Shown: piece after piece, positions 1,877 through 60,031 of the stretch | Position numbering within the stretch: position 1 is the stretch's first letter | Layout: every line of letters begins with the position of its first letter | DNA from: Candidatus Shapirobacteria bacterium | Lineage (GTDB): Bacteria > Patescibacteriota > Microgenomatia > UBA12405 | Length of the DNA: 64,000 bases | Assembly: GCA_028704635.1 (NCBI GenBank) | Contig: JAQWFB010000002.1 | Coordinates: forward strand, 693-64,692 | Direction of reading: 5' to 3' | Notes under the pieces: generated by a model | The model's input: only the letters and a program-made list of their open reading frames with translations | Databases searched by the model: none | Told to the model about the DNA's origin: nothing | Position numbers and translations under genes: made by a program

Positions 1877-1894
1877 ACCCTGATTATACCAAAC

Positions 1895-1922
1895 AAAACC
1901 TCCCCTTCTTCAAGGGGAGGTG
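1895..1922 (-). terminator. Intrinsic terminator after tsf (cctcccc-loop-ggggagg), followed on the minus strand by an extended -10 (tgGTATAAT) for frr
   Basis: Perfect 7-bp GC stem plus T-run on minus strand. TGnTATAAT at about 1880-1890 (minus). Confidence 0.55.
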
Positions 1923-1952
1923 GATTTCGATGTAATCGAAAGACAGAGGGGT

Positions 1953-2411
1953 TTAAATCTCAAATCTTGCGAATCTATTGATTTTCATATTTTCGCCAAA
2001 TTTAGCAATTAAAGCCTTAACCATCTCATCAATGGTTTTACTTGAATCTTTAATAAATTCTTGTTTAAGTAATTCTTCTACTGTTTCTGGATTCATAGCT
2101 GCTACTTGTAAACAAAGATCTCTGGTCAAAGCCAAAAAATCCTCATTCTTAGCCACAAAATCAGTTTCACATAAAAGCTCCACCATGACTCCAATTTTGC
2201 CGGTTGAATGGGTATAAGTTGCTACTCTTCCCTGATTAGTTTCTCTTTCGGTTTTAGATTCCGCCTTTTTAAAACCTTTTTCTTTTAAAATTTCCTTGGC
2301 TCTTTTTTCATCGCCTTCAGCTTCTTCTAAAGCTGCTTTGATTTCCATAATCCCCAAGCCCATCTCAGCTCGAAGTTTTTTAACTAATTCAATTATATTT
2401 TTTTGATCCAT
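1953..2411 (-). CDS. tsf: Elongation factor Ts (short form)
   Basis: N-terminal UBA-like LVKKLRAEMGLGIMEIKAAL. Typical EF-Ts core. Confidence 0.85.
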   Translation of the reverse strand: MDQKNIIELVKKLRAEMGLGIMEIKAALEEAEGDEKRAKEILKEKGFKKAESKTERETNQGRVATYTHSTGKIGVMVELLCETDFVAKNEDFLALTRDLCLQVAAMNPETVEELLKQEFIKDSSKTIDEMVKALIAKFGENMKINRFARFEI

Positions 2412-11669: not shown

Positions 11670-13688
11670 ATGAAGTCCCTTACTAAGCCAATCCATTTTT
11701 TGTTTTTGGCTCTTGTTTTTTTTACTCCTTTTATTTTCACCCAATCAAATTCTGAGCTTTTTGAATTACCAAAAATGTATTTCGTTTATCTTTTAACCAC
11801 TTTAATAACTACCTTTCATTTAATTAATGTTATCCAAAAAAAAGCTCCTTTTCGCAAAAAAACCTTTTTAGATATTCCCATTCTTCTCTTTTTTATTTCC
11901 CAAGTAATTTCCACTTATTATTCCATTGACCCCCATACTTCTTTTTTCGGTTACTACTCTCGTCTTAATGGCGGTCTTTTATCATTGATTTGTTATCTTC
12001 TTCTCTATTTTATTTTATCCGTTTATATTGACTCAGATTTTAAAAATAAAATTATTAATTTTTCCCTACTTTCGGCATTTTTAGTTTCAATTTATGCCAT
12101 TGCCGAACATTTTGGTATTGATAAAAATTTATGGGTTCAAGACGTCCAATCACGAGTTTTTTCCACTCTTGGTCAACCAAATTGGCTCGCCGCTTATCTT
12201 TGTATTTTTATTCCCTTTTCTATTTTCAAATTTTTTGAATCAATTAAAATTGATTTTGATAAATCCAACAAATTGTACGGGCGAATCATGATTCGCCCCT
12301 ACCTATATTTAATATTAACTTTAATATTTTACATTTCTCTTCTTTTTACTAAATCCAAATCCGGTATCATCGCCTGCCTCATTTCTCTGGCTATTTATTT
12401 TGCAGTTTCTTTTTTTAAAAACAAACCCTTCAGGAAATTATTAATTCTTAATTATTCATTATTAATTATTCTTTCACTTTTAATCACCAATCCCATTAAA
12501 GATAGTTTTATTTCTTTTATAAAAACCAGACATATCGTACCTATAGTCGTAGAAGATAAAATTCCATCATCAAAAATCTTAATAACTTCTAGTGGTGATA
12601 TCCGCAAAATTGTTTGGACGGGAGCCATTGATCTTTGGAAAAAATTCCCCATTTTTGGCACCGGAGTTGAAACTTTCGCCTATTCCTATTACTGGACCCG
12701 CCCAGTCGAACACAACCTCACTTCTGAATGGGATTATCTCTACAACAAAGCCCACAATGAATATATTAATTATCTCGCCACCACCGGCACAGTCGGCTTT
12801 ACTACCTATTGCTTTTTCATCATCTCCGTTTTATTTTTCTCATTAAAGTCTCCCTTGTCAAAGGGAAATTTAGAGGGATTGAATTTAGTCGTCCTGGCCA
12901 GCTTTTCCAGCATATTAATAACTAATTTTGCCGGTTTTTCAGTTGTTACCACTTCGCTCTTCTTCTTTCTTCTCCCCACCCTTTTAAATCCAGATCAGGA
13001 AATTAAAGTAGAGACGTTGCATACAACGTCTCTACGTAAATTTTTAGTTATCCCAATAATTATCATCAGTTTATTCCTAATTAAAAAAACAATTTTCTTT
13101 TACATCGCCGACATCGCCTACAATCAATCCGAAAAATACGATTCTCAAAATGATTATCAAACTGCTCTTTCTTTCGCTCAAACTAGCCATCAACTAAATC
13201 CAAGCGAACCGCTCTACATTGACAAATTAGCCACTATTTACTCAAAAATTGCTCTAAACACCGGCAAACAAGAATATATCGACCAAGCCATCGATTATTC
13301 CGATCTAACCATAAAAATCTCCCCTGCCAACATTAATTTTTGGAAACAACGCGCCCAAGATTATCTTTACCTCTCCGGCATTGATACTAAATATTTCTCT
13401 GTTTCTATCACCGCTCTAACCAACGCCGCCAGTCTCGCTCCCACTGATCCTAAAATTTTCTATTCCCTTGGCCAATTTTTAGAAACAGCCAGTCTTACAG
13501 ACCAAGCCATTCCTTATTACCAAAAAGCCATTGAATTAAAATCAAATTATGATTATGCCTATTTCGCTCTCGGCAAAATTTATCTTTCCAAAAAAGAAAA
13601 AGCGTTAGCCAAAGAAAATCTCCAAAAAACCATTGATTATTCCTATCCCACCAACACTGAAGCAGAAAAATTACTGAAAAGTCTTTAA
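11670..13688 (+). CDS. O-antigen ligase (Wzy_C) family polytopic membrane protein fused to C-terminal TPR repeats. Contains three in-frame short repeat insertions
   Basis: Multiple TM helices, NEYINYLATTG-type Wzy_C loop. C-terminal TPR-like (AIPYYQKAIELKSNYDYAYFALGKIY). Confidence 0.75.
   Translation: MKSLTKPIHFLFLALVFFTPFIFTQSNSELFELPKMYFVYLLTTLITTFHLINVIQKKAPFRKKTFLDIPILLFFISQVISTYYSIDPHTSFFGYYSRLNGGLLSLICYLLLYFILSVYIDSDFKNKIINFSLLSAFLVSIYAIAEHFGIDKNLWVQDVQSRVFSTLGQPNWLAAYLCIFIPFSIFKFFESIKIDFDKSNKLYGRIMIRPYLYLILTLIFYISLLFTKSKSGIIACLISLAIYFAVSFFKNKPFRKLLILNYSLLIILSLLITNPIKDSFISFIKTRHIVPIVVEDKIPSSKILITSSGDIRKIVWTGAIDLWKKFPIFGTGVETFAYSYYWTRPVEHNLTSEWDYLYNKAHNEYINYLATTGTVGFTTYCFFIISVLFFSLKSPLSKGNLEGLNLVVLASFSSILITNFAGFSVVTTSLFFFLLPTLLNPDQEIKVETLHTTSLRKFLVIPIIIISLFLIKKTIFFYIADIAYNQSEKYDSQNDYQTALSFAQTSHQLNPSEPLYIDKLATIYSKIALNTGKQEYIDQAIDYSDLTIKISPANINFWKQRAQDYLYLSGIDTKYFSVSITALTNAASLAPTDPKIFYSLGQFLETASLTDQAIPYYQKAIELKSNYDYAYFALGKIYLSKKEKALAKENLQKTIDYSYPTNTEAEKLLKSL
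12275..12303 (-). repeat. REP-like GC-rich palindrome copy (ggtaggggcgaatcatgattcgcccgtac), inserted in-frame in the ligase gene (encodes YGRIMIRPY)
   Basis: Identical core to 59094-59117 and near-identical to 59011-59035 and 23783-23808. Confidence 0.8.
12847..12880 (+). repeat. Short repeat agtctcccttgtcaaaggga..agagggatt, in-frame inside ligase gene. Second copy at 48531-48589
   Basis: 20/20 identical core plus shared agagggatt tail seen directly. Confidence 0.7.
13008..13035 (+). repeat. Palindrome gtagagacgttg-cata-caacgtctctac in-frame inside ligase gene (encodes KVETLHTTSLR). Related copy at 37540-37569
   Basis: 12-bp perfect inverted arms. Shares 11-nt arm with 37540 copy. Confidence 0.75.
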
Positions 13689-14234: not shown

Positions 14235-14288
14235 ACGCTATTTTATCAAATTAACTTTATAAACTTGACGAACTTGATAAACTTACTC

Positions 14289-15167
14289 ATGGTTAATCTC
14301 ATTTTCTTCGGCTCATCAGAATATTCTCTTATTATTCTTAAAAAAATTCTTGAAATTAAAGACTTTAATTTATTGGCCATCGTCACTAAACCAGACAAGG
14401 CTGCCGGTCGAAATCAAGAAATAACTGCCAATCCTGTGGCCGATTTCGCTCGCCAAAATAATTTAGATCTTCTTCAACCTCAAGATTTTGATCAAGAATT
14501 TATTAACAAATTTAAAGAATTAAAACCAGATCTTGTTATCGTCGTCGCCTATGGCCCCCCCTATTTCAATCAAGAAATGATTGACACTCCCCAATTTAAA
14601 GTTGTAAATATTCATCCATCTCCATTACCAAAATATCGCGGTGCCACCCCCGGCCCTTGGCAAATTATCAATGGTGAAACTAAAACAGCTGTTTCTTTTT
14701 TTCAAATCGATGCTCTTCCTGATCATGGCCCCATCATTTCTCAAATTCCTTTTGACATCAGTCCTATCGAAACCGCCACCAGCTTTTATCAAAAAGCTTT
14801 TAACCTCGCCGCCAATAATCTAGAGACAGTTATTAAAAAATATATCTACGATCTACAATCTACAACCCACTCTCTAATCCCGCAGGATCACACCCAAAAA
14901 ACCTATTTCCCAAAATTTACCAAAGACAGTGCTCAAATTGATTGGTCTTGGGATATTTCTAAAATTGAACGTTTTATCAGAGCTCTCAACCCTTGGCCAA
15001 TTGCCTGGACTTTTGTCACTAATCAACAATCTCAAAAAATCAAAATGAAAATACTATCCGCCTCAACCACTAATCAACAATTAATTCCCAACACTGTCCA
15101 AATCGAAGGTAAAAAAATCGTCAACTGGTCCGAAATTTGCAAATATTACACTATAAATAAAAACTAA
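14289..15167 (+). CDS. fmt: Methionyl-tRNA formyltransferase (start moved to internal ATG 14289 to avoid overlap with def)
   Basis: Formyl-transferase N-domain IFFGSS...VNIHPSPLPKYRGATP. def-fmt pairing. Confidence 0.85.
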   Translation: MVNLIFFGSSEYSLIILKKILEIKDFNLLAIVTKPDKAAGRNQEITANPVADFARQNNLDLLQPQDFDQEFINKFKELKPDLVIVVAYGPPYFNQEMIDTPQFKVVNIHPSPLPKYRGATPGPWQIINGETKTAVSFFQIDALPDHGPIISQIPFDISPIETATSFYQKAFNLAANNLETVIKKYIYDLQSTTHSLIPQDHTQKTYFPKFTKDSAQIDWSWDISKIERFIRALNPWPIAWTFVTNQQSQKIKMKILSASTTNQQLIPNTVQIEGKKIVNWSEICKYYTINKN

Positions 15168-15267
15168 TTATTAAGAATAAATTAAAAAAATTTTGCCTAT
15201 AAATAGGACTTTCCTTTTTTGACATTTTTTTTAAATCCTTTTTAATTAAATTAAGGAGGTAAAAAAT

Positions 15268-15375
15268 ATGCCAGTCAAAAAACCAGCTAAAAAAGTCGCC
15301 AAAAAAGCTGTCAAAAAGCCAGCTAAAAAAGTGGTCGCCAAGAAAAAAGTGGCTAAAAAAGCCAAGAAGAAATAA
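15268..15375 (+). CDS. Tiny Lys/Ala/Pro-rich basic protein (35 aa, MPVKKPAKKVAKK...), histone-H1/Hc1-like. Not in ORF track
   Basis: Canonical SD aaggaggt 7 nt upstream. Followed by terminator. Paralog at 59936-60031. Confidence 0.5.
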   Translation: MPVKKPAKKVAKKAVKKPAKKVVAKKKVAKKAKKK

Positions 15376-15392
15376 GTGAAAATTTCTAACTA

Positions 15393-18450: not shown

Positions 18451-18548
18451 CAATACAGTTATAAAGTTTGTCAAGTTTTTAAAGTTGTAAAGTTGTTTTA
18501 AATTTTAGCTTGATGAACTTGATAAACTTTTGACTTTATAAACTCAAT

Positions 18549-23536: not shown

Positions 23537-23586
23537 ATCCACACCTTATACTTGATAAACTTGATAAACTTGATAAACTATCTGTC

Positions 23587-23782: not shown

Positions 23783-23808
23783 TGTAGGGGCGGACCATGT
23801 GTCCGCCC
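23783..23808 (+). repeat. REP-family variant palindrome tgtaggggcggaccatgtgtccgccc plus T-run, acting as rpmG terminator
   Basis: Shares tgtaggggcg...catg...cgccc frame with copies at 12275, 59011, 59094. Confidence 0.65.
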
Positions 23809-29299: not shown

Positions 29300-30184
29300 A
29301 TGACTAATATTTCAAAGGCCGTCATTGCTGCCGCTGGCCGAGGCACTCGTTTTCTTCCTGTCGTTAAATCTTATCCCAAAGAATTGGTTCCAATTCTAGA
29401 TAAACCAAATATTCAATATCTTGTCGAAGAAGCTATTGGTGCTGGTATTACTGATATCGCCATTATCCATAGATTAGGCGAAAGTTCAATCGAAAAATAT
29501 TTCTCCCCCGATCAAGACCTAGAAGATTATTTGATCAGTAGAAATAAAACTGAATATTTAGACAGTTTAAAAAATATTTGGCAAAAAGCTAAACTAACTT
29601 TCATCCCTCAATCAGCTGACCTTCCCTATGGCAACGGCTCCCCTATTTTAGCCGCAAAAGATTTTATTGGTTCCGATAATTTTGTTTACATGTTTGGTGA
29701 CGATCTCATCGTTGAAGAAACTTATGGCCAATATTTAACCAAAATGATCACTTCTCTTGAAGAATACAATTCCGACGCTGTCGTTTCTACTCAAGAAATG
29801 CCAACTGAAGAAATGAAACGTTACGGTGCTGTTGTTCCTCACACCAACCCTACCGTTCCCCACCAAATCAGTGCTTTGCTCGAAAAAACTGACCCACCTC
29901 CATCTAATTTTGCTGTTGTTGGTCGTTATGTTATCTCTAATAAAATTTTAGATGTTATTAAAACCCAAGGCACCACCAAAGACAATGAACTTTGGCTGGC
30001 CGATGCGTTAAACACTATGGCTCAAAATGGCGTCGTCGTCGATGAACCAATCACTAATGGTGTTTGGATGACCACTGGTGATCCTCTTCGCTGGCTCGAA
30101 GCCAACATCGCCGTCGCTATCAAAGATCCCAGACTTAAAGACGATTTAAAAGAATTTTTAACAAATTTAGATGTCAATAAATAA
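29300..30184 (+). CDS. galU: UTP--glucose-1-phosphate uridylyltransferase (GalU-type), copy 1
   Basis: AVIAAAGRGTRFLPVVKSYPKELVPILDKPNIQYLVEE matches GalU signature. Confidence 0.8.
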   Translation: MTNISKAVIAAAGRGTRFLPVVKSYPKELVPILDKPNIQYLVEEAIGAGITDIAIIHRLGESSIEKYFSPDQDLEDYLISRNKTEYLDSLKNIWQKAKLTFIPQSADLPYGNGSPILAAKDFIGSDNFVYMFGDDLIVEETYGQYLTKMITSLEEYNSDAVVSTQEMPTEEMKRYGAVVPHTNPTVPHQISALLEKTDPPPSNFAVVGRYVISNKILDVIKTQGTTKDNELWLADALNTMAQNGVVVDEPITNGVWMTTGDPLRWLEANIAVAIKDPRLKDDLKEFLTNLDVNK

Positions 30185-31046
30185 AGCTGTTATCGCCGCT
30201 GCTGGTCGAGGTACTCGTTTTTTGCCTGTAGTTAAGGCTTACCCAAAAGAATTAGTTCCAGTTCTTTCTAAACCAAATATTCAATATTTAGTTGAAGAAG
30301 CCATTGGTGCTGGTATTACCAACATTGCCATTGTTATTCACTTCGGCGAAAAAAAGATTCAAAATTACTTTTCCAAAGATGCCAATTTAGAAAAATATTT
30401 AATTGAAAACAATAAAACTGAATATCTCGACAGTCTAAAAAATATTTGGCAAAAAGCTAAAATAACTTTTATTGAACAGCCTTTAGACTTACCTTATGGC
30501 ACTGGTTCCCCTGTTTTAGCCGCCAAAGAATTCATCGGTAATGATGATTTTGCCTATTTTTATGGTGATGATTTTATTCTTGAACCAACTCCTGGTCAAT
30601 TATTATCGAAAATGATTTCTAAATACGACCAATACCAAGCCTCCGCTATTCTGGCCGTTCAAAAAGTTCCCATGGAAGAAATTTATCGCTTTGGTAGTAT
30701 TAAATATATTAACGACCCTGTCTATCCGGATCGCATGTCCGAGATTATGGAAAAACTCCCAGCCGATCAAGCCCCATCCAATTCAGTCAATATCGGCCGC
30801 TTCATTGCTTCAAATAAAATTTTAGAAAATATCGATATTAAAAAACTCTCTAGGGACAACGAATTATGGTTCACCGACGCTCTAACTAAATTAGCTCAAT
30901 CAGGAATTGTTCTTACTCAAGCCACTCAAGATGAACAATGGCTCACCACTGGCGATCCCCTTCGCTGGCTTAAAGCCAATATCAGTACTGCTCTTCAAAA
31001 CCCTCAATACAAAAAAGATATTTCTGAGTTCATAAAAACACTATAA
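30171..31046 (+). CDS. galU: UTP--glucose-1-phosphate uridylyltransferase paralog, copy 2 (about 60% identical to copy 1)
   Basis: Same signature (AVIAAAGRGTRFLPVVKAYPKELVPVLSKPNIQYLVEE). Overlaps copy 1 by 14 nt. Confidence 0.8.
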   Translation: MSINKAVIAAAGRGTRFLPVVKAYPKELVPVLSKPNIQYLVEEAIGAGITNIAIVIHFGEKKIQNYFSKDANLEKYLIENNKTEYLDSLKNIWQKAKITFIEQPLDLPYGTGSPVLAAKEFIGNDDFAYFYGDDFILEPTPGQLLSKMISKYDQYQASAILAVQKVPMEEIYRFGSIKYINDPVYPDRMSEIMEKLPADQAPSNSVNIGRFIASNKILENIDIKKLSRDNELWFTDALTKLAQSGIVLTQATQDEQWLTTGDPLRWLKANISTALQNPQYKKDISEFIKTL

Positions 31047-33560: not shown

Positions 33561-33707
33561 TCCCGCTCTAAAAAGGCTTGGATACTGATCAAAACTAAGA
33601 TGGAGAATAATCTCTATTTAATTGACAACTGTCAACTAAATATATTATTCTCCATCCCCAAGTCTACTGATAAATCTCAGTACTGATGAGTCCCAAAAGG
33701 ACGAAAC

Positions 33708-34586
33708 TTGAAACTTATGAAAAATACCAATCCCCTAGTCACCATCTACATGCCAGTTTTCAATGCTATCCCTTATCTTAGTCAAGCCATTGAAAGTATT
33801 TTAAATCAAAGTTATTCCAATTTTGAATTTATTATTGTTGACGACGCCTCCACCGACAATTCTTGGAAAGTCATTAAATCCTACGCCAAAAAAGATTCTC
33901 GTATTATTGCTATTAAAAATCATATTAATTTAGGCGTTAGTTTAACTTCAAATATTGCTATTTCCAAAGCCAAAGGTAAATTTTTAGCTCGTATGGATGC
34001 TGACGATATTTCTTTTACTGATCGCATTGAAAAACAAGTCGATTTTTTAATCAAAAATTCTAAAACCATTGCAGTTGGTGGTCAATGTGTGGTTATCGAT
34101 GAAAACAACAATATTATCGGTAATAAAAATTTCCCCACCCAACATCAAAAATTAAAGGATATGATTTTTTGGGCTGTTCCTATGCAACAACCATCAATCA
34201 TGATTAATTTAGATAAATTACCTAAAAATTTTGTTTGGTATTCTCCAAATCAATCTTCCGCTGAAGAAATTAATTTAATGTTCCGTTTTATGATTTATGG
34301 CCAAATCTCCAACACTGAAGATAATTTACTTTTTTATCGTCATTTAAACAACAGTCTCTCTCACAAAAATCCAAAAGCTACTTTTAAATTAACCATCAAA
34401 AGTCGTTTAAATGCTTTATCTCTCGGATTCAAGCCTAGTATTAAAGCTATCATTTTAAATCTAATGCAATTAATTGTCATCGCCCTAATTCCCAATAATT
34501 TAATTTACGATATTTGGTATTTCATTCGCGGTATTAAAAAATCAACCGGTGCTACAGTTGGGACTTTTGCCGAAACTCAAGTATAA
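33708..34586 (+). CDS. Family-2 glycosyltransferase (CsbB/GtrB-like)
   Basis: VTIYMPVFNAIPYL...FEFIIVDDASTDNS, DAD motif (RMDADDIS). Confidence 0.8.
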   Translation: MKLMKNTNPLVTIYMPVFNAIPYLSQAIESILNQSYSNFEFIIVDDASTDNSWKVIKSYAKKDSRIIAIKNHINLGVSLTSNIAISKAKGKFLARMDADDISFTDRIEKQVDFLIKNSKTIAVGGQCVVIDENNNIIGNKNFPTQHQKLKDMIFWAVPMQQPSIMINLDKLPKNFVWYSPNQSSAEEINLMFRFMIYGQISNTEDNLLFYRHLNNSLSHKNPKATFKLTIKSRLNALSLGFKPSIKAIILNLMQLIVIALIPNNLIYDIWYFIRGIKKSTGATVGTFAETQV

Positions 34587-37539: not shown

Positions 37540-37569
37540 TGTAGAGACGTTCTGCAGAACGTCTCTACA
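37540..37569. repeat. Perfect palindrome tgtagagacgttc-tgca-gaacgtctctaca. Same family as 13008-13035
   Basis: 13-bp perfect arms. Shared gtagagacgtt core. Confidence 0.75.
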
Positions 37570-42599: not shown

Positions 42600-43472
42600 T
42601 CATTTACACAAAGGGCACTTATCACCAGAATAATAACAATCACATTTTTCACAATGTTTCAAACCATCAACATTTCCTAGTCCGTAAACCAACTCTCCAT
42701 TTATACCCACTGACACAATTATTCCCATTCTATTATTTTCACTTCCCCAAGAACTTCCATGCCCCCCTTCAGTATTAATTTCATTCCCCATTCTTGCCAT
42801 TAAGCTTTCAAATAAATAATTATCACCATCTGCTCTTTCCATGGCCATTCTTACATCTTTTTCCATTTTTATTTTATTTTCAGTATCCTTACCTTCCTCA
42901 ATAAAATCCCAAATTTCCATAAACTCAGGCATTATTTTTTTACATTCATATATCCAATCATCAATCTCTTCAATCCTAAATCCTATCGGTTGTTGCCTTA
43001 CGCTTTCCTTATTATTAATTGAACCTATAGATTTTCCATTATTTTTTAACAATCTCTTAGCCAATTCAAACGATTCATTTTCATCACAAAGCAAGGGAAC
43101 ATGTCTCCCATAAACCACCCATTCATTTTTTCCAAAAACAGGAAATTCTATATTCAATCTTCCCTCTTTGTAAACATTTCCACCATCATCAGGACTTATC
43201 CAAACAATCAAATTGTATCCCTTTTTACCTAAATCAAAAACATTAATTGTTGCTTCTTTTTCTGCTTCTGAATGTTTATTATATTCCCAATTATCTTTTT
43301 CTATTTTACTTTCTACATAAAGATCTGAAATATTTATTCTATTTCTTAAATCTAAATCATTAGCCCTCTCCTCCAAAAACGCTCCTGCAATTTCACTAAG
43401 AGAATTTTGATTAATATCGTAAAACTTTTTATTTTCTAAATTCATATACTTTTGCTCGAAAGTTTTGGTCAT
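42600..43472 (-). CDS. Hypothetical protein with C-terminal zinc ribbon (HCEKCDCYYSGDKCPLC), last gene of nrd operon
   Basis: 290 aa ORF. CxxC...CxxC terminus. Co-directional with nrdJ and ATR gene. Confidence 0.5.
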   Translation of the reverse strand: MTKTFEQKYMNLENKKFYDINQNSLSEIAGAFLEERANDLDLRNRINISDLYVESKIEKDNWEYNKHSEAEKEATINVFDLGKKGYNLIVWISPDDGGNVYKEGRLNIEFPVFGKNEWVVYGRHVPLLCDENESFELAKRLLKNNGKSIGSINNKESVRQQPIGFRIEEIDDWIYECKKIMPEFMEIWDFIEEGKDTENKIKMEKDVRMAMERADGDNYLFESLMARMGNEINTEGGHGSSWGSENNRMGIIVSVGINGELVYGLGNVDGLKHCEKCDCYYSGDKCPLCK

Positions 43473-43534
43473 CCGGCTCTACGGTTGCGGCACAGCCTAG
43501 GAATTACACCTAGTTCCCCATTAATAATTATTTT

Positions 43535-44035
43535 TTAATTAAACTTTGACCTCCACATCCAATTTAAAAAGGATGATAATTTATTAAAATATTTCAATAC
43601 ATTTTCATCAAATTTCTCTTTTTTCTTTTCTTCTCTATCCCATTTTAAAGTCACCACCCTCCTTTCCGCTTCTCGACAATCAGTTCGACAAATATTAATT
43701 CTCGATTCAACTTCATTTTCACCAGGTATTAAAAAATCGTTTAAATCCTTAACTCTTTTTTCATATTCTTCCGAATCACTTTCTATTTCTTCAATTCTTT
43801 TCTCTCCGTTTTTCCAATCTTTACCAACATAAAGACTACTCATAATTTCATTTAAATCTTTTTCTATTTGAAGAATTTTTTCATTTTCTTCTTTTTCCTC
43901 TATCACCACTCTAGTCCACCCCAACCGGGCCTGAAACTTATCAATCGCTCCAACTGCTTCCACAAAAGGAGAATCTTTACTCACACTTAAATTGCATTCT
44001 CCTGATGTAAAACCTTTATCTCCTCTTTCACTCAT
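43535..44035 (-). CDS. PduO-type ATP:cob(I)alamin adenosyltransferase (MMAB family)
   Basis: N-terminus RGDKGFTSG...VSKDSPFVEAVGAIDKFQARLG matches TGDKGxTSL..VxKDDxRVEAxGxxDELN signature. Confidence 0.6.
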   Translation of the reverse strand: MSERGDKGFTSGECNLSVSKDSPFVEAVGAIDKFQARLGWTRVVIEEKEENEKILQIEKDLNEIMSSLYVGKDWKNGEKRIEEIESDSEEYEKRVKDLNDFLIPGENEVESRINICRTDCREAERRVVTLKWDREEKKKEKFDENVLKYFNKLSSFLNWMWRSKFN

Positions 44036-44040
44036 ATTTT

Positions 44041-46545
44041 TTAACTACATTTACTATAACCACAAAACTCATTTGTACATTTAAAACAGCCCTCCTCAGC
44101 TCGAAGTGGACTACCGCAATCTGGACAAGAAAGTACTTTACTTTCCATAACAGCTCGTTCAACTCTAATATTTTCCAATGCTGTTGTATCGATTGAATTT
44201 TTTTCGCAGGCAAACATATCTAATTGTTCACCCCGTGAAATTTCCAAAAGCGATTTCCCAACTGCATCAAACATACTCAAAACTGTCCCATTTCCTAAAC
44301 CAATTTTTTGGCCACATGAAATTCCTACTAAATTATCAGCAATTTCATCTAAACCAGCCCCATATTTTAACGATAAAGAAGCCAATCGACCAATAGCCTC
44401 AGCCGCCCCAGCCATAAATCCACCACTCTTCCCCAAGGTCACGAATACCTCCACTGGACCATCACCCGCTTCATAAAAAATTGAAGTGTAGACACTCCCC
44501 AAATCACATTTCTTTTTTAATCTCACCCCACGAGCCATTACTGGTGTTTCTTTTTTCTTTGGTGGCAAAACTACAACCTTTTCTTCAGTTGTTTCTTTTT
44601 CTTTAACTTTTGACATTGGCTCAAATGACCTTGAACCACTCCTATAAATAGTAATACCCTTAGTTCCTAAAGCATAAGATTTTAAATAAGCCTCCCTAAC
44701 ATCATCAACCGTTGCTTCCTCTGGTAAATTAATTGTTTTTGAAACCGCATTATCAGTATATTTTTGAAAAGCCGCCTGAATTCTAATATGCCATTCTGGT
44801 TCAATTTCCAAGGCTGTAATAAAAACTGATTTCAAATCTTCAGGAATTTCTTCCACTCCTTTCAAAATTCCTCCATTTTTGACAATTTTTTCAATCAATT
44901 CTTCGGAATAAATTTCTCTCCTTTTTAATTCATCAACTAAAGTTGGATTAACACTGTAAAGAGTTTTTCCTTCAACTGTGTTTTTTTGATAACCCAAAGA
45001 AAATACTGGTTCAATTCCTGAACTGGTATCAGCCAACATACTAATCGTTCCAGTTGGAGCAATCGTCGTTAAAGCCATATTTCTTGGTTTGTAATCAGTA
45101 TTAGCAAAAACACTCACATCCCACAAAGGAAAAGTTCCTCTGGTTTTAGCCAATTCACAAGTTGCCTCCCTAGCCGATTCAGTTACAAACTTCATTATTT
45201 TTCCTGCCCATTCAATCCCTTCCTCCGAATCATATCTCACCCCCAATTTAAATAATGCATCAGCAAATCCCATCACCCCAACCCCAATTCTTCTAGTTTT
45301 ACTTACCATATCCCTAATTTTTTGAACTGGAAATTCATTTACTTCCACCACATTATCCAAAAAATGCACTCCAATTCTAATAGTTTCTTTTAAATCTTCC
45401 CAATTAATGTCGCCCTTTTTAAGGGAGATGTCAGCACCAGCTGACAGAGGGTTTTGTTTTACAAACTTTGCCAAATTAACACTCCCTAAATTACAAGCAT
45501 CATAAGGCAAAAGTGGTTGTTCTCCACAAGGATTAGTAGCTTCAATTCGACCAATAGTTGGGACTGGATTTGAAGTTGAGTCGTTCATTCTGTCTATAAA
45601 AACTAAGCCTGGATCACCAAATTGCCAAGCCAATCGTGTTACTAAATTAAATACTTTATAAGCATTCAATTTCATCGCCACCTCACCTGTTCTTGGGTTA
45701 ATTAATTCATACCCTTCCCCTTCTTGGCTGGCAATTGCCCAATCGTATAATTTTTTAACTCCAGCCTCAATATCTCTCAACCTTCTTTCGACATTTCGAT
45801 CTTCCTCCGCGTTTTTTATTTCCTCAATAACCTCTTCTGGAATCGAATCGTCAGTCACAAATTTTTTATCAATTTCAATTCTCTCCATAAACGCATTCGT
45901 CACCGCCAAGGAAATATTGAAATTAGTCAAACTCCATTCATCTAATTTAACCACTGCAAATCTCAACACATCAGGATGATCAATTGACAACATTCCCATA
46001 TTTGCTCCACGTCGCACTCCACCCTGTTTAATTTGAGCCGTCACATCATTATAAGCCTGCATAAAACTAACCGGTCCAACCGTAGTTCCACCACTCGTTT
46101 TAATATAATCACCACTTGGTCGTAATCGAGAAAATGAAAAACCCGTTCCACCACCACTTTTGTGAATCATAGCCATATTCGACATGGTTTCTAAAATTGA
46201 TTCCATCGAGTCATCAATTGGCAACACGAAACAAGCTGATAATTGTTGATGTGGTTTGCCTGCATTTATCAAGCAAGGCGTATTGGGTAAAAATTTTTGT
46301 TCCGCAAATAATTGATAAAAAGTCTTGGCTTGTTTTTCGATTCCTTCATCATTTATTCCAAAAAATCTATCCCCTTTAGCCACATTAGTCGCCACTCTCC
46401 AAAAAATATCTTTAACTGTCTCATATGGTTTACCGTCTTCACTTTTTCGTGAATACCTAGTTTCAGCAATATATTTGGCATTCGCTGAAAGCTTTGGCTC
46501 CATTAGTTCACCACCACTAATATTTTGTCTTGATGTATCTGTCAT
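44041..46545 (-). CDS. nrdJ: Adenosylcobalamin-dependent (class II) ribonucleotide reductase
   Basis: 834 aa. Class II RNR core (NPCGEQPL, thiyl-Cys region). C-terminal zinc ribbon CPDCGS...CFKC. Confidence 0.9.
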   Translation of the reverse strand: MTDTSRQNISGGELMEPKLSANAKYIAETRYSRKSEDGKPYETVKDIFWRVATNVAKGDRFFGINDEGIEKQAKTFYQLFAEQKFLPNTPCLINAGKPHQQLSACFVLPIDDSMESILETMSNMAMIHKSGGGTGFSFSRLRPSGDYIKTSGGTTVGPVSFMQAYNDVTAQIKQGGVRRGANMGMLSIDHPDVLRFAVVKLDEWSLTNFNISLAVTNAFMERIEIDKKFVTDDSIPEEVIEEIKNAEEDRNVERRLRDIEAGVKKLYDWAIASQEGEGYELINPRTGEVAMKLNAYKVFNLVTRLAWQFGDPGLVFIDRMNDSTSNPVPTIGRIEATNPCGEQPLLPYDACNLGSVNLAKFVKQNPLSAGADISLKKGDINWEDLKETIRIGVHFLDNVVEVNEFPVQKIRDMVSKTRRIGVGVMGFADALFKLGVRYDSEEGIEWAGKIMKFVTESAREATCELAKTRGTFPLWDVSVFANTDYKPRNMALTTIAPTGTISMLADTSSGIEPVFSLGYQKNTVEGKTLYSVNPTLVDELKRREIYSEELIEKIVKNGGILKGVEEIPEDLKSVFITALEIEPEWHIRIQAAFQKYTDNAVSKTINLPEEATVDDVREAYLKSYALGTKGITIYRSGSRSFEPMSKVKEKETTEEKVVVLPPKKKETPVMARGVRLKKKCDLGSVYTSIFYEAGDGPVEVFVTLGKSGGFMAGAAEAIGRLASLSLKYGAGLDEIADNLVGISCGQKIGLGNGTVLSMFDAVGKSLLEISRGEQLDMFACEKNSIDTTALENIRVERAVMESKVLSCPDCGSPLRAEEGCFKCTNEFCGYSKCS

Positions 46546-48530: not shown

Positions 48531-48589
48531 AGTCTCCCTTGTCAAAGGGAGAAACATCGCGTTAGCGATGAGAGGGATTTAATCCAAAA
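48531..48589 (+). repeat. Structured element between rplK and rplA: second copy of the agtctcccttgtcaaaggga repeat carrying an extra hairpin (atcgcgttagcgat). Could double as L1 autoregulatory leader
   Basis: Identical 20-nt core with 12847-12866. Nested hairpins seen directly. Confidence 0.6.
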
Positions 48590-57615: not shown

Positions 57616-57805
57616 AATTTAACAGACCTTTGGCCTCGGCTATTGATATTTTTATCAAAACCGAGGCTTTTTTTATTAAAAAATGACAAATTTTAGTTAA
57701 ACGACAAATTTATCTTTTTATCTGTTATAATAACCCCATCAACCGAAGACAGCCGGCACTCAAATAAGTCCAGCCGAGGCAAAACAATTTATTTGTTTTA
57801 ATTGC

Positions 57806-57835
57806 GCCTCGATCTTCGAGGCCCTTTTTATTTAA
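57806..57835 (+). promoter_or_regulatory. rplJ leader hairpin (gcgcctcgatcttcgaggccc-T5), likely L10 autoregulatory/attenuator element
   Basis: GC-rich hairpin and T-run immediately upstream of rplJ start. Confidence 0.45.
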
Positions 57836-57849
57836 AAATACAAAACAAT

Positions 57850-58819: not shown

Positions 58820-58847
58820 AAATCCCCCTTTTTAGGGGGATTTTTTA
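58820..58847 (+). terminator. Intrinsic terminator atccccc-ttttt-aggggga-T6
   Basis: 7-bp stem, T-run. Confidence 0.75.
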
Positions 58848-59010
58848 TTGTAACTAATCGGATTATCTCTAATATATTTTCTGACCATTAAATATTCTTT
58901 TTCATTGCGAATAATTCGTTCGTAATAATTTCGTTGCCATAATTTAATTCCAATTTCTTTTGATGTGTTCATTTTAAAATACCCAATAATATTTGATAAT
59001 AATGACCTGT

Positions 59011-59035
59011 GTAGGGGCGATTCATGAATCGCCCC
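59011..59035 (+). repeat. REP-like palindrome gtaggggcgattcatgaatcgcccc (inside transposase remnant)
   Basis: Perfect 11-bp arms. Confidence 0.8.
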
Positions 59036-59093
59036 ATTTAAAACATCGACATCATTAATATTAATTTCATTATTTATTTTTTCATTCATTTTG

Positions 59094-59117
59094 GGCGAAT
59101 CATGATTCGCCCCTACA
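59094..59117 (-). repeat. REP-like palindrome gtaggggcgaatcatgattcgccc in inverted orientation to 59011 copy (REP doublet)
   Basis: Identical to 12275-12303 copy. Confidence 0.8.
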
Positions 59118-59382
59118 ATTTTAATGATCATATGCAAATGGTCTGGCATAATTTGATAACCATCGATTTTAACGTCAAAACGATTTATTAAATTTAATAA
59201 CCAAATTTTACATACCAACCATTTTTATTTAAATCCATTTTTCCATTTTCAATTTCCCCAAATATTTCATTTCGATTTTGCACACAAATCGTTACAAAAT
59301 AATATCCATTTTTTGAATAATCAAACCCATCCAATCTAATCGATATTCTGTGATATTTCACACATTAATGATATCAAAAAAT

Positions 59383-59935: not shown

Positions 59936-60031
59936 TTATTTACAGCCGCAACCACAGCTAGGACCACAGCCACAACTACTCTTTTTAACAGCCTTTTTAA
60001 CGGGCTTCTTAACAGGTTTTTTTACGGGCAT
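59936..60031 (-). CDS. Tiny protein MPVKKPVKKPVKKAVKKSSCGCGPSCGCGCK (31 aa): Lys-rich N-terminus plus Cys-Gly tail. Paralog of 15268-15375
   Basis: First 6 codons nearly identical to the other MPVKKP gene. Followed by terminator. No clear SD. Confidence 0.4.
   Translation of the reverse strand: MPVKKPVKKPVKKAVKKSSCGCGPSCGCGCK

Follow-up and report, generated by a model that had tools for sequence, protein, structure and literature searches.

In-frame copies of two structure-forming DNA repeat families in predicted inter-helix loops of an O-antigen-ligase-like gene of Candidatus Shapirobacteria

A stretch of 64,000 nucleotides of contig JAQWFB010000002.1 (the window), from a Candidatus Shapirobacteria bacterium of the Candidate Phyla Radiation (CPR, or Patescibacteria), contains an open reading frame (ORF) for an O-antigen-ligase-like membrane protein that is studded with short, G+C-rich repeats. 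A first-pass annotation had described three different palindromic elements in this ORF, each with a twin elsewhere in the window. The three segments and their twins were recovered, far above the expectation from shuffled sequences, and are dispersed repeats, but they are not three kinds of palindrome. Elements 1 and 3 are members of a single superfamily, that of repetitive extragenic palindromes (REPs) of the double-foot GTAG type, while element 2, though a repeat copy, is an intrastrand triplex-motif repeat rather than a plain palindrome. Two further observations go beyond that annotation: a putative decayed fourth element at 12519–12545, and the location of both twins of element 1 inside a gene for a REP-associated tyrosine transposase (RAYT). 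The explanation that we consider likely is that a functional membrane-protein gene collected copies of two structure-forming repeat families in its inter-helix loops, followed by exchange of patches of the gene. The first family (elements 1, 3 and the putative fourth) is that of the double-foot GTAG REPs, 28-nt hairpins with GTAG and CTAC feet by which RAYTs recognise them, and the second (element 2) is the intrastrand triplex-motif repeat, here called element B. Both are small, G+C-rich and dispersed in Shapirobacteria genomes. The features of the ORF are as follows.

11670–13688, plus strand: host ORF of 672 aa, an O-antigen-ligase-like (Wzy_C) polytopic membrane domain with a C-terminal TPR domain
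12275–12302, no strand assigned: site 1 REP (element 1), GTACGGGCGAATCATGATTCGCCCCTAC, one foot GTAC instead of GTAG, peptide YGRIMIRPY
12519–12545, no strand assigned: putative decayed REP remnant (site 4), ATAAAAACCAGACATATCGTACCTATA, peptide IKTRHIVPI; orthologues have intact REPs at the same codons
12847–12880, plus strand: short form of element B (element 2, site 2) in the ligase ORF, AGTCTCCCTTGTCAAAGGGA + AATTTA + GAGGGATT, peptide KSPLSKGNLEGL
13008–13035, no strand assigned: site 3 REP (element 3), double-foot, GTAG-AGACG family, GTAGAGACGTTGCATACAACGTCTCTAC, peptide VETLHTTSL

The 672-aa ORF is intact, with no internal stop, so the segments are read in frame as had been claimed, and the gene is under purifying selection, with a ratio of nonsynonymous to synonymous divergence (dN/dS) of 0.13–0.27 against six orthologues. 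Pfam placed Wzy_C at aa 216–380 and TPR at aa 480–656. A protein 100% identical to the ORF product is annotated in a Candidatus Shapirobacteria metagenome-assembled genome (MAG), on three contigs, and the gene order mreB – ligase – def – fmt is kept at six orthologous loci in other assemblies. The suggestion of a pseudo-fusion fell with these data: synteny is conserved, Wzy_C is found in the best 120 of 5,643 homologues (E ≤ 1e-10), and TPR-type domains are found in all of these save one truncated entry. An AlphaFold2 model built on 36 sequences (mean predicted local distance difference test score, pLDDT, 78.6; predicted TM score 0.80) gave an all-helical membrane domain followed by a TPR solenoid. 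Its non-helical segments 199–207, 285–307, 397–403 and 440–453 match sites 1, 4, 2 and 3, respectively, and the segments with pLDDT below 50 include 199–205, 273–305 and 397–400. All four element sites are thereby predicted to be inter-helix loops, in agreement with the earlier placement of the segments in loops or a linker. The ORF makes up 3.2% of the window yet holds four of its nine element copies outside the RAYT gene (binomial P about 1e-4).

Elements 1 and 3 share one plan: GTAG, stem, short loop (usually with CATG), stem and CTAC. The feet read GTAG...CTAC at 13008–13035 and at its intergenic twin, and GTAC...CTAC at 12275–12302. When folded as single-stranded DNA, element 1 reached −8.5 kcal/mol (z −4.1) and element 3 −13.3 kcal/mol (z −7.9); the range over the REPs was −8.5 to −13.8 kcal/mol (z −4.1 to −7.9), with none of 200 shuffles equally stable. 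The G+C content of the stems was 50–64%, against 33% for the window. The further copies in the window, and the gene that holds two of them, are listed here.

37541–37568, no strand assigned: intergenic twin of the site 3 REP, GTAGAGACGTTCTGCAGAACGTCTCTAC
58832–59361, minus strand: RAYT (TnpA_REP) gene, HUH Y1 transposase, Pfam Y1_Tnp, frameshifted
59011–59035, no strand assigned: REP inside the RAYT gene, in frame, peptide GAIHESPL
59093–59116, no strand assigned: second REP inside the RAYT gene, in frame, peptide VGANHDSP, core identical to the ligase-ORF copy
23785–23808, plus strand: GTAG hairpin with a single foot, GTAGGGGCGGACCATGTGTCCGCCC, and a T run behind it, just 3' of an L33-like gene

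The 20-nt core of element 1 occurs again at 59093–59112 without mismatch and at 59015–59034 with two mismatches, where shuffles expect none, and element 1 with its flank is 97% identical to the copy at 59093–59121 across 29 nt. Element 3 and its twin have both 11-nt arms in common and differ in their loops. At site 4, intact REPs are present in orthologues P0021 (GTAGGGGCGAGGCATGCCTCGCCCCTA) and P0003 (ATAGAGACGC..GCGTCTCTAC). Most differences of the window sequence from these are G>A and C>T, and its hairpin is gone in folding; we infer that this segment is a decayed fourth REP copy.

Three copies of one double-foot type and two of the other were found in the window. Five of the seven GTAG REP copies are genic (the ligase ORF has three, the RAYT gene two), so that these REPs are not predominantly extragenic. 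About 1 Mb of CPR-like contigs yielded 21 well-formed double-foot REPs, 16 of them of the GTAG-AGACG family and 8 inside long ORFs. A canonical double-foot REP has one of three frames open (VGA.H..PL or VET....SL), since frame 2 begins with TAG and frame 3 meets TGA. The site 3 and RAYT copies are read in the open frame. Site 1 is read in frame 2, and this frame is open there only thanks to the GTAC foot, as a canonical GTAG would put a TAG stop in it; TAC or TAT stands at this foot in all orthologues that have a site 1 REP. The stems at site 1 vary among orthologues while self-complementarity is kept (GGGCGAATCATGATTCGCCC, GGGCGTATtgccATACGCCC, GGGCGCGgcgtgaCGCGCCC); by lineage they read GGGCGAATCATGATTCGCCC, GGGCGTAT-tgcc-ATACGCCC and GGGCGCG-gcgtga-CGCGCCC, all in one common frame.

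The REP sequence type with the core GGGCGAWTCATGAWTCGCCC is spread across phyla. A scan of GTDB species genomes with this core gave at least 120 stretches in many phyla (Dehalococcoidia, Clostridia, Acidobacteria, Ignavibacteria, Planctomycetes and others). Among the matches listed, most have GTAG on one or both sides, 3 of 124 adjoin RAYT motifs, and Shapirobacteria are absent. REPs are normally lineage-specific, and one REP sequence kept across phyla is unusual. A 28-nt palindrome, GTAG-GGGCGATTCATGAATCGCCC-CTAC, was seen in at least 120 GTDB stretches of very different phyla, nearly all of them MAGs and rarely beside a RAYT gene.

The RAYT gene scored 26.6 bits against Pfam Y1_Tnp (PF01797; cut-off 23). 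Its best NCBIfam match was NF047646 (REP-associated tyrosine transposase; E 4.7e-16), at 59 bits, under the 80-bit equivalog cut-off, the match being split by the internal REP insert. The E. coli TnpA_REP structure 4ER8 was matched with E 0.008 in the region of the Tyr motif, covering WQ..YYE..IRN...Y..YI..NP, and the aligned columns are conserved in 32 homologues. The gene has the HUH motif (MPDHLHMII), WQRNYYERIIRNE and YIRDNP, and homologues are named 'REP element-mobilizing transposase RayT' by JGI. The minus-strand product reads ...GYQIMPDHLHMIIKIVGANHDSPKMNEK...NGAIHESPLH...WQRNYYERIIRNEKEYLMVRKYIRDNP, with the N-terminal part in a separate frame at 59194–59361. An intact 176-aa homologue, P0121, with 95% protein identity, lies on the same contig as the ligase orthologue P0002; relative to this gene region (L127/P0121, 99% mean column identity) the window copy has a 1-nt deletion (TTT>TT) near 59217–59219. 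This comparison points either to a pseudogene of very recent origin or to an error in sequencing. The two internal REPs are mutually inverted and 57 nt apart, and their peptides, VGANHDSP ... GAIHESPL, directly follow the HUH motif. VGA... stands right behind the HUH motif in 83 of 120 RAYT homologues (VGAIHESP, VGANHDSP, VGAHHDAP, VGAGLVPA and others), with ...AIHESPL or ...RPAPT further downstream. Such peptides come from a pair of inverted REPs translated in frame, the hallmark published for TnpA_REP subclass 2.4.

Element B was found at three further places in the window.

48531–48580, plus strand: twin of site 2 in the rplK-rplA spacer, a full-length element B with both hairpins (1 and 2) and the mirror tail AGAGGGAT
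45403–45462, plus strand: element B in frame in the class II (B12-type) ribonucleotide reductase (RNR) gene (44041–46545, minus strand), peptide KQNPLSAGADISLKKGD
1893–1962, plus strand: B-like element with two hairpins and the tail GAGGGGTTT, tsf-frr spacer; the element is conserved at this spacer in locus L004

At site 2 the layout is a pyrimidine arm TCTCCCTT, a GTCA loop, a purine arm AAGGGAAA, a short linker and the mirror tail AGAGGGAT. The 20-mer of this copy recurs exactly at 48531–48550 (chance expectation 0). The rplK-rplA twin carries an additional hairpin, CATCGCGTTAGCGATG, ahead of the common GAGGGATT, and as single-stranded DNA it folded to −15.7 kcal/mol (z −6.4). Its reading as an L1 leader or a tRNA-like structure was dropped, as the element also occurs in ORFs and in other spacers. 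Read on the minus strand, the B-like element at 1893–1962 is a terminator hairpin followed by a T run. Rfam, searched at gathering thresholds and at E ≤ 5, gave no family matching element 2 or the REPs.

The wider element B set came from a metagenome scan for CTCCCTGTCAAGGGAG-N8-36-GGGTTT, which gave at least 120 loci; all counts for this set rest on the matches listed. The loci have a median G+C of 34%, and several contigs carry more than one copy. On one strand the order is GCCTCCCT-GTCA-AGGGAGGT-(hairpin)-GGAGGGTTT, with the consensus AAAGC-CTCCCT-GTCA-AGGGAGG-T-[variable hairpin, often with a C-GAA-G triloop]-GGAGGGTTT. Short forms, in which the second loop is 3–4 nt, recur in the set, for example CCCTCCCT-GTCA-AGGGAGGG-TTA-GGGTGGGTTT. 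With MAFFT and RNAalifold, hairpin 1 alone was retrieved, owing to the variable length of hairpin 2. The 3' tail mirrors the purine arm instead of repeating it in direct or inverted form, and the two vary together, as seen when the three bases of the arm after AGGG are set beside the three bases of the tail before GGG.

Arm AGG: tail GGA or GGT
Arm GAG: tail GAG
Arm GGA: tail AGG
Arm AGA: tail AGA or TGA
Arm GAA: tail AAG

An antiparallel rule, in which G faces G and A faces A or T, held at the three positions left unconstrained by the search in 114 of 124 unique copies, while 10,000 permutations of the tails gave 74 such copies on average and never more than 87. Counted by type, the rule was kept in 8 of 17 types (expected 2.7). 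A direct-repeat rule fits only 15 of the 124 copies, and Watson–Crick pairing of the tail with the 5' arm fails, by inspection, for the GGTGGG and AGAGGG types. The tail follows the code of a class II intrastrand purine-motif triplex (antiparallel G.G-C, A.A-T and T.A-T), and the DNA would, on this evidence, be expected to fold into such a triplex.

Element B is found inside genes and between them. About 61% of unique copies in these CPR-like metagenome contigs (80 of 131) lie in stop-free frames of at least 150 aa, compared with 74% of random 45-nt windows from the same loci, so that the element is only mildly depleted from genes. By reading, five of the six frames of its consensus are stop-free, and five of the six frame and orientation classes are well populated, with the peptides SLPVKGGARRAEGF, TSLSREV..GLF, KTLRPSGTSLDREA, KPSALRAPPLTGRL and NPP..SLDREA. 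Metagenome copies were also seen in frame in ORFs judged by eye to be MiaB-, TrmD- and Dus-like, and in the locus L234 a Wzy-like membrane ORF carries two copies. Orientation is strongly biased: the forward form lies on the strand of negative GC skew in 100 of 122 copies (p 4.5e-13), made up of 32 of 47 intergenic copies, 27 of 33 co-oriented with the host gene and 41 of 42 opposed to it. In the window, the plus strand has a GC skew of −0.16 to −0.39 (8-kb windows) throughout, whatever the gene direction, and all four copies are on the plus strand; a skew so uniform and strong places the whole window on one replichore.

The history of the sites was followed in an alignment of 114 full-length ligase orthologues and in DNA comparisons at six syntenic loci. 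The elements are present in some orthologues and absent from most.

Site 1, REP: carried by 20 of 114 orthologues, lacking in 94
Site 4, REP: 10 of 114
Site 3, REP: 2 of 114
Site 2, short element B: 5 of 114
Site 3, element B: 8 of 114
Loop at aa ~250–262, element B: 10 of 114

The same loops hold other elements in other lineages. P0015 has a perfect palindrome at site 3, and P0003 has element B at site 2, as in the window; across the orthologues element B is in frame in three different loops and in several reading frames, for example as CPTCPVKGRWSQFIGTERV and LSREVVPFTLGPVGLF. On a neighbour-joining tree the distribution of elements is patchy, with decayed copies in several lineages. A third recurrent motif, ..N(S/W)xLEI(R/K/G)N(L/S).. 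(DNA, for example, AAATTGGAAATTAGAAATTGAAAAT), stands at site 2 in 30 of 114 orthologues, and a related LEIGNST or LDIRNST version at site 4 in many others, in the alignment of ligase orthologues such as that at L004 10001–12004; the motif probably represents a further repeat family directed at these loops.

Comparison with the closest allele, P0004, showed how the set of elements in this genome is embedded. Nucleotide identity was 92–99% over aa 1–165 and 87–98% over aa 473–637, and fell to 45–71% in patches at about aa 181–215, 253–300, 377–405 and 435–460. Patch 1 is 93% identical to P0002, the aa 253–272 patch and the site 3 patch are 78–85% identical to P0015, and the site 2 patch is 87% identical to P0003. 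The first-pass alternative of a mosaic ORF was thus partly right, in that each patch matches a different and more distant orthologue. The prediction that the segments are lineage-specific insertions fared similarly: presence and absence were seen at every site, while no clean insertion was seen relative to P0004, so that a clean-insertion model against the closest allele is ruled out by the pairwise DNA alignment. The 20-nt REP core is identical at 20 of 20 positions to that of P0069 despite a synonymous divergence (dS) above 1.4 and diverged flanks, which points to recent patch transfer or to homogenisation with other copies. From these alignments, the elements appear to be insertions in gene-family history, and this genome seems to have put together its own combination through homologous exchange of patches.

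As an enzyme of the HUH/Y1 class, TnpA_REP recognises REP hairpins in single-stranded DNA by their GTAG foot, binding and cutting them, and transposition of the related IS200/IS605 elements is coupled to the replication fork (see Quentin et al. 2018, PMC6006769). In the mechanism that we propose, both families most likely spread via single-stranded DNA at the fork, as suggested for the REPs by the known behaviour of HUH enzymes and for element B by its strand bias. The REPs would spread, now or formerly, through RAYT, and element B would have been spread or maintained by a single-stranded, replication-oriented step. The window is about 88% coding, so landing sites would mostly be genes. Selection would then keep copies that lie in tolerant loops and in a stop-free frame with a net length change of 3n; later editing would change GTAG to GTAC, removing the TAG stop, and AT-biased mutation would erode copies. 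Finally, homologous recombination would move short allele patches among related lineages and would be the source of the combination in this genome. We infer the direction and timing of each of these events.

Several observations weigh against this account. Every site differs from P0004 as a replaced patch that reaches past the element, with no clean junction against this nearest allele, so the original insertion events were not observed, and the site 3 loop is just 1–3 residues longer than in element-free orthologues. The RAYT gene has no flanking REPs, and because it is frameshifted the REPs may now be immobile in the source genome. The ORF copy of element 2 folds weakly (−5.4 kcal/mol; z −1.3, not significant alone). 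No target-site duplication of 2–4 nt was found at the tested boundaries of element B, and no RAYT-like ORF, the sole transposase type screened, in 822 kb around about 130 copies. The element copy counts cover 64 kb of the source genome only. The lack of a target-site duplication, together with end symmetry that is only imperfect (AAAGCCTCC / GGAGGGTTT), also sets element B apart from a miniature inverted-repeat transposable element.

The patch structure could be produced by a gene that recombines pre-existing hypervariable-loop alleles, with the repeats as passengers and no transposition into this gene in this lineage, an account that we find plausible and place just short of an even call. It is favoured by the phylogenetic incongruence from patch to patch, by the patchiness of all loop variants in the tree, by the generally heterogeneous identity between related genomes, and by the patch at aa 253–272, which lacks a recognisable element yet behaves like the others (85% identity to P0015, 40–45% to close relatives). 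It leaves unexplained why the loop sequences are identical to intergenic and RAYT-internal repeats, and some allele must still have gained the elements by insertion or conversion. Since recombination of this kind explains acquisition and not repeat identity, it is complementary to the collection of repeats followed by patch exchange rather than exclusive of it. Three fresh RAYT-mediated transpositions into the ORF of this genome would fit the identity of the site 1 REP with the RAYT-internal copy, including 5 nt of flank, and a RAYT gene that is one 1-nt deletion short of intact. This reading is largely refuted, however, and we hold it to be very improbable: the near-identical P0004 allele shows no clean junctions, the same elements stand at the same codons in orthologues of 55–87% identity, one foot is already GTAC and the site 4 copy has decayed.

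We also think it unlikely that the hairpins are selected, non-selfish cis-acting structures in mRNA or DNA that cause translation or replication to pause between transmembrane segments or that promote local variation. Such a role is consistent with the unchanged REP core in P0069, with stems that stay complementary across variants, with the position of all sites between helices, and with the hyper-rearranged TM_ECO loci of E. coli (PMC4666352), which resemble the hypervariable patches here. Yet each element is lacking in most orthologues, copies have decayed in several lineages, the same elements occur in unrelated genes and spacers, and conversion from other copies or recent patch transfer would explain the conservation equally well. 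An artefact (chimeric metagenome assembly, pseudogene or fusion ORF) comes to mind because the source is a MAG and the nearby RAYT gene is frameshifted, but we give it almost no credence in view of the exact protein on three contigs, the synteny in six other assemblies, the intact ORF with its low dN/dS, and the architecture common to all listed full-length homologues; the patches, at about 60–170 nt, are too short and too many for assembly switches.

Ogata and co-workers reportedly described, in 2000, Rickettsia palindromic elements (RPEs) in frame at tolerated positions of functional genes in a small genome (work cited in PMC3733652). RPE-1 is about 100–150 bp long, and RPE-4 and RPE-6 are CGTC-type REPs. 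The likeness lies in in-frame palindromic repeats at tolerated loop positions of a functional gene, and the parallel drawn in the first-pass annotation stands: the repeats belong to dispersed families, are absent from many orthologues, lie in predicted loops and sit in a gene under purifying selection. The repeats here are shorter (28–60 nt), GTAG-tagged or triplex-motif, and from another phylum, and no sequence relationship was seen. They work like RPEs, yet are not members of the RPE family.

The BoxC or PIT intrastrand triplex motif is reportedly treated by Hoyne and Maher (2000), whose work is named alongside that of Holder and colleagues. In E. coli these TM_ECO repeats (BoxC/PIT) read 5'-CCCTCNCCC-N3-6-GGGNGAGGG-N3-GGGNGAGGG and form a class II triplex in vitro; their loci are hyper-rearranged and always intergenic, with 9-nt stems and no strand bias (Holder et al. 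2015, PMC4666352). Element B has in common with them the order pyrimidine stem, loop, purine stem, loop and G-rich third strand, the antiparallel code of G.G-C and A/T.A-T, a G/C-rich composition, many conserved copies and unusually rearranged loci, and the loop and tail of its short form (TTA-GGGTG...) resemble type A TM_ECO. In contrast, its stems are 7–8 nt, its second loop usually takes the form of a larger, variable hairpin, some 61% of the copies are inside ORFs, its orientation is strongly biased with respect to GC skew, and it comes from another phylum, with a triplex that is predicted from its sequence.

Intragenic GTAG REPs that are in frame, sometimes two per ORF, and associated with RAYT genes have been surveyed before, including different REPs at about the same site in orthologues, as in Xanthomonas recB, and feet whose TAG acts as a stop (Di Nocera, De Gregorio & Rocco 2013, PMC3733652). 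The REPs described here are likewise short, G+C-rich GTAG-foot palindromes, in frame in ORFs and with a RAYT link. They differ in that the host is a CPR bacterium (Shapirobacteria), a group outside that survey, that the genic fraction is much higher (5 of 7 copies in the window, and 8 of 21 across related contigs totalling about 1 Mb), and that four copies of two unrelated families lie in one ORF. Double-foot REPs (5' GT[AG]G and 3' C[TC]AC on one hairpin) belong to TnpA_REP subclass 2.4, or RAYT group 4, which has in-frame REPs between HuH and Y and a patchy, cross-phylum distribution (Quentin et al. 2018, PMC6006769). Set beside this subclass by described features, the window RAYT and its REPs agree in having both feet on one hairpin, three G-C pairs at the foot in the GGGCG family and in-frame REPs; the gene here is frameshifted, with no flanking REPs, and the GTAG-AGACG family is without the GGG foot. 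REPINs consist of two inverted REPs a short distance apart and are tied to a single-copy RAYT (Bertels & Rainey 2011, PMC3116915). The RAYT-internal pair (59011–59035 and 59093–59116) has the same arrangement but lies inside the gene instead of flanking it, and the ligase-ORF copies are single double-foot units, not doublets.

Intragenic GTAG REPs, doubly hit ORFs, in-frame REPs in RAYT genes, double-foot REPs and triplex-motif repeats are therefore already published, and the finding is a clear new instance of known phenomena. A literature search gave no report of REPs, RAYTs or triplex motifs in CPR/Patescibacteria and no matches for the exact DNA and peptide strings of these elements. The apparent novelty lies in the CPR host and in an intragenic variant of the triplex motif that shows strand bias and an expanded second loop.

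Other features of the window were noted in passing. A match to the type III hammerhead ribozyme at 33657–33712 (plus strand) scored 47.6 bits against a gathering cut-off of 48.5 (E 2.5e-7 for the whole window), with the core motifs CUGAUGAG, CGAAAC and GUC intact; it lies in the spacer upstream of, and overlaps the start of, a family-2 glycosyltransferase gene (33708–34586). An AdoCbl-II riboswitch at 43458–43535 (minus strand; 43.9 bits, over the cut-off) adjoins the B12-dependent RNR region, and an L10 leader-like match at 57725–57839 (plus strand; 43.4 bits, cut-off 44) precedes rplJ/rplL. The AT-rich motif CTTGATAAACTTGATAAACT occurs, partly in tandem, at 745–802, 14242–14299, 18509–18544 and 23538–23582. 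Of these four copies, three or more sit in spacers immediately 5' of genes (fmt, tRNA-Ser, rpmG), and the motif may serve as a promoter or operator. The product of a small ORF at 59936–60031 (minus strand), MPVKKPVKKPVKKAVKKSSCGCGPSCGCGCK, combines a Lys/Pro repeat with a Cys-Gly-rich tail behind it; the DNA of the KKP repeat shows 79% complementarity with the Lys/Ala-repeat stretch 15261–15318 (region 15261–15382, plus strand). Two tandem paralogous genes at 29300–30184 and 30171–31046, 76% identical over 290 nt, correspond to the two NTP_transferase genes of L004.

CPR genomes are tiny and gene-dense, and in them RAYT-linked GTAG REPs and BoxC-like triplex motifs live largely inside genes. 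There the repeats lengthen loops of housekeeping and envelope proteins by 9–20 residues, as in the ligase, in class II RNR and in ORFs that look MiaB-, TrmD- and Dus-like by eye. Odd G+C-rich peptide inserts of this sort are DNA repeats and not protein motifs, which matters for annotation and is relevant to homology modelling of CPR proteins. The strand bias of element B and its overlap with recombinant patches bear on the role of intrastrand triplex motifs, and the predictions are testable. A bolder possibility, which we regard as doubtful at present, is that element B is an undescribed, CPR-wide mobile family of intrastrand triplexes that inserts by a replication-oriented, single-stranded step, almost indiscriminately within genes, and creates hypervariable, recombination-prone loops. 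If this were true, non-B DNA structure would be a systematic source of protein-loop diversity in ultra-small genomes, in essential as well as surface proteins.

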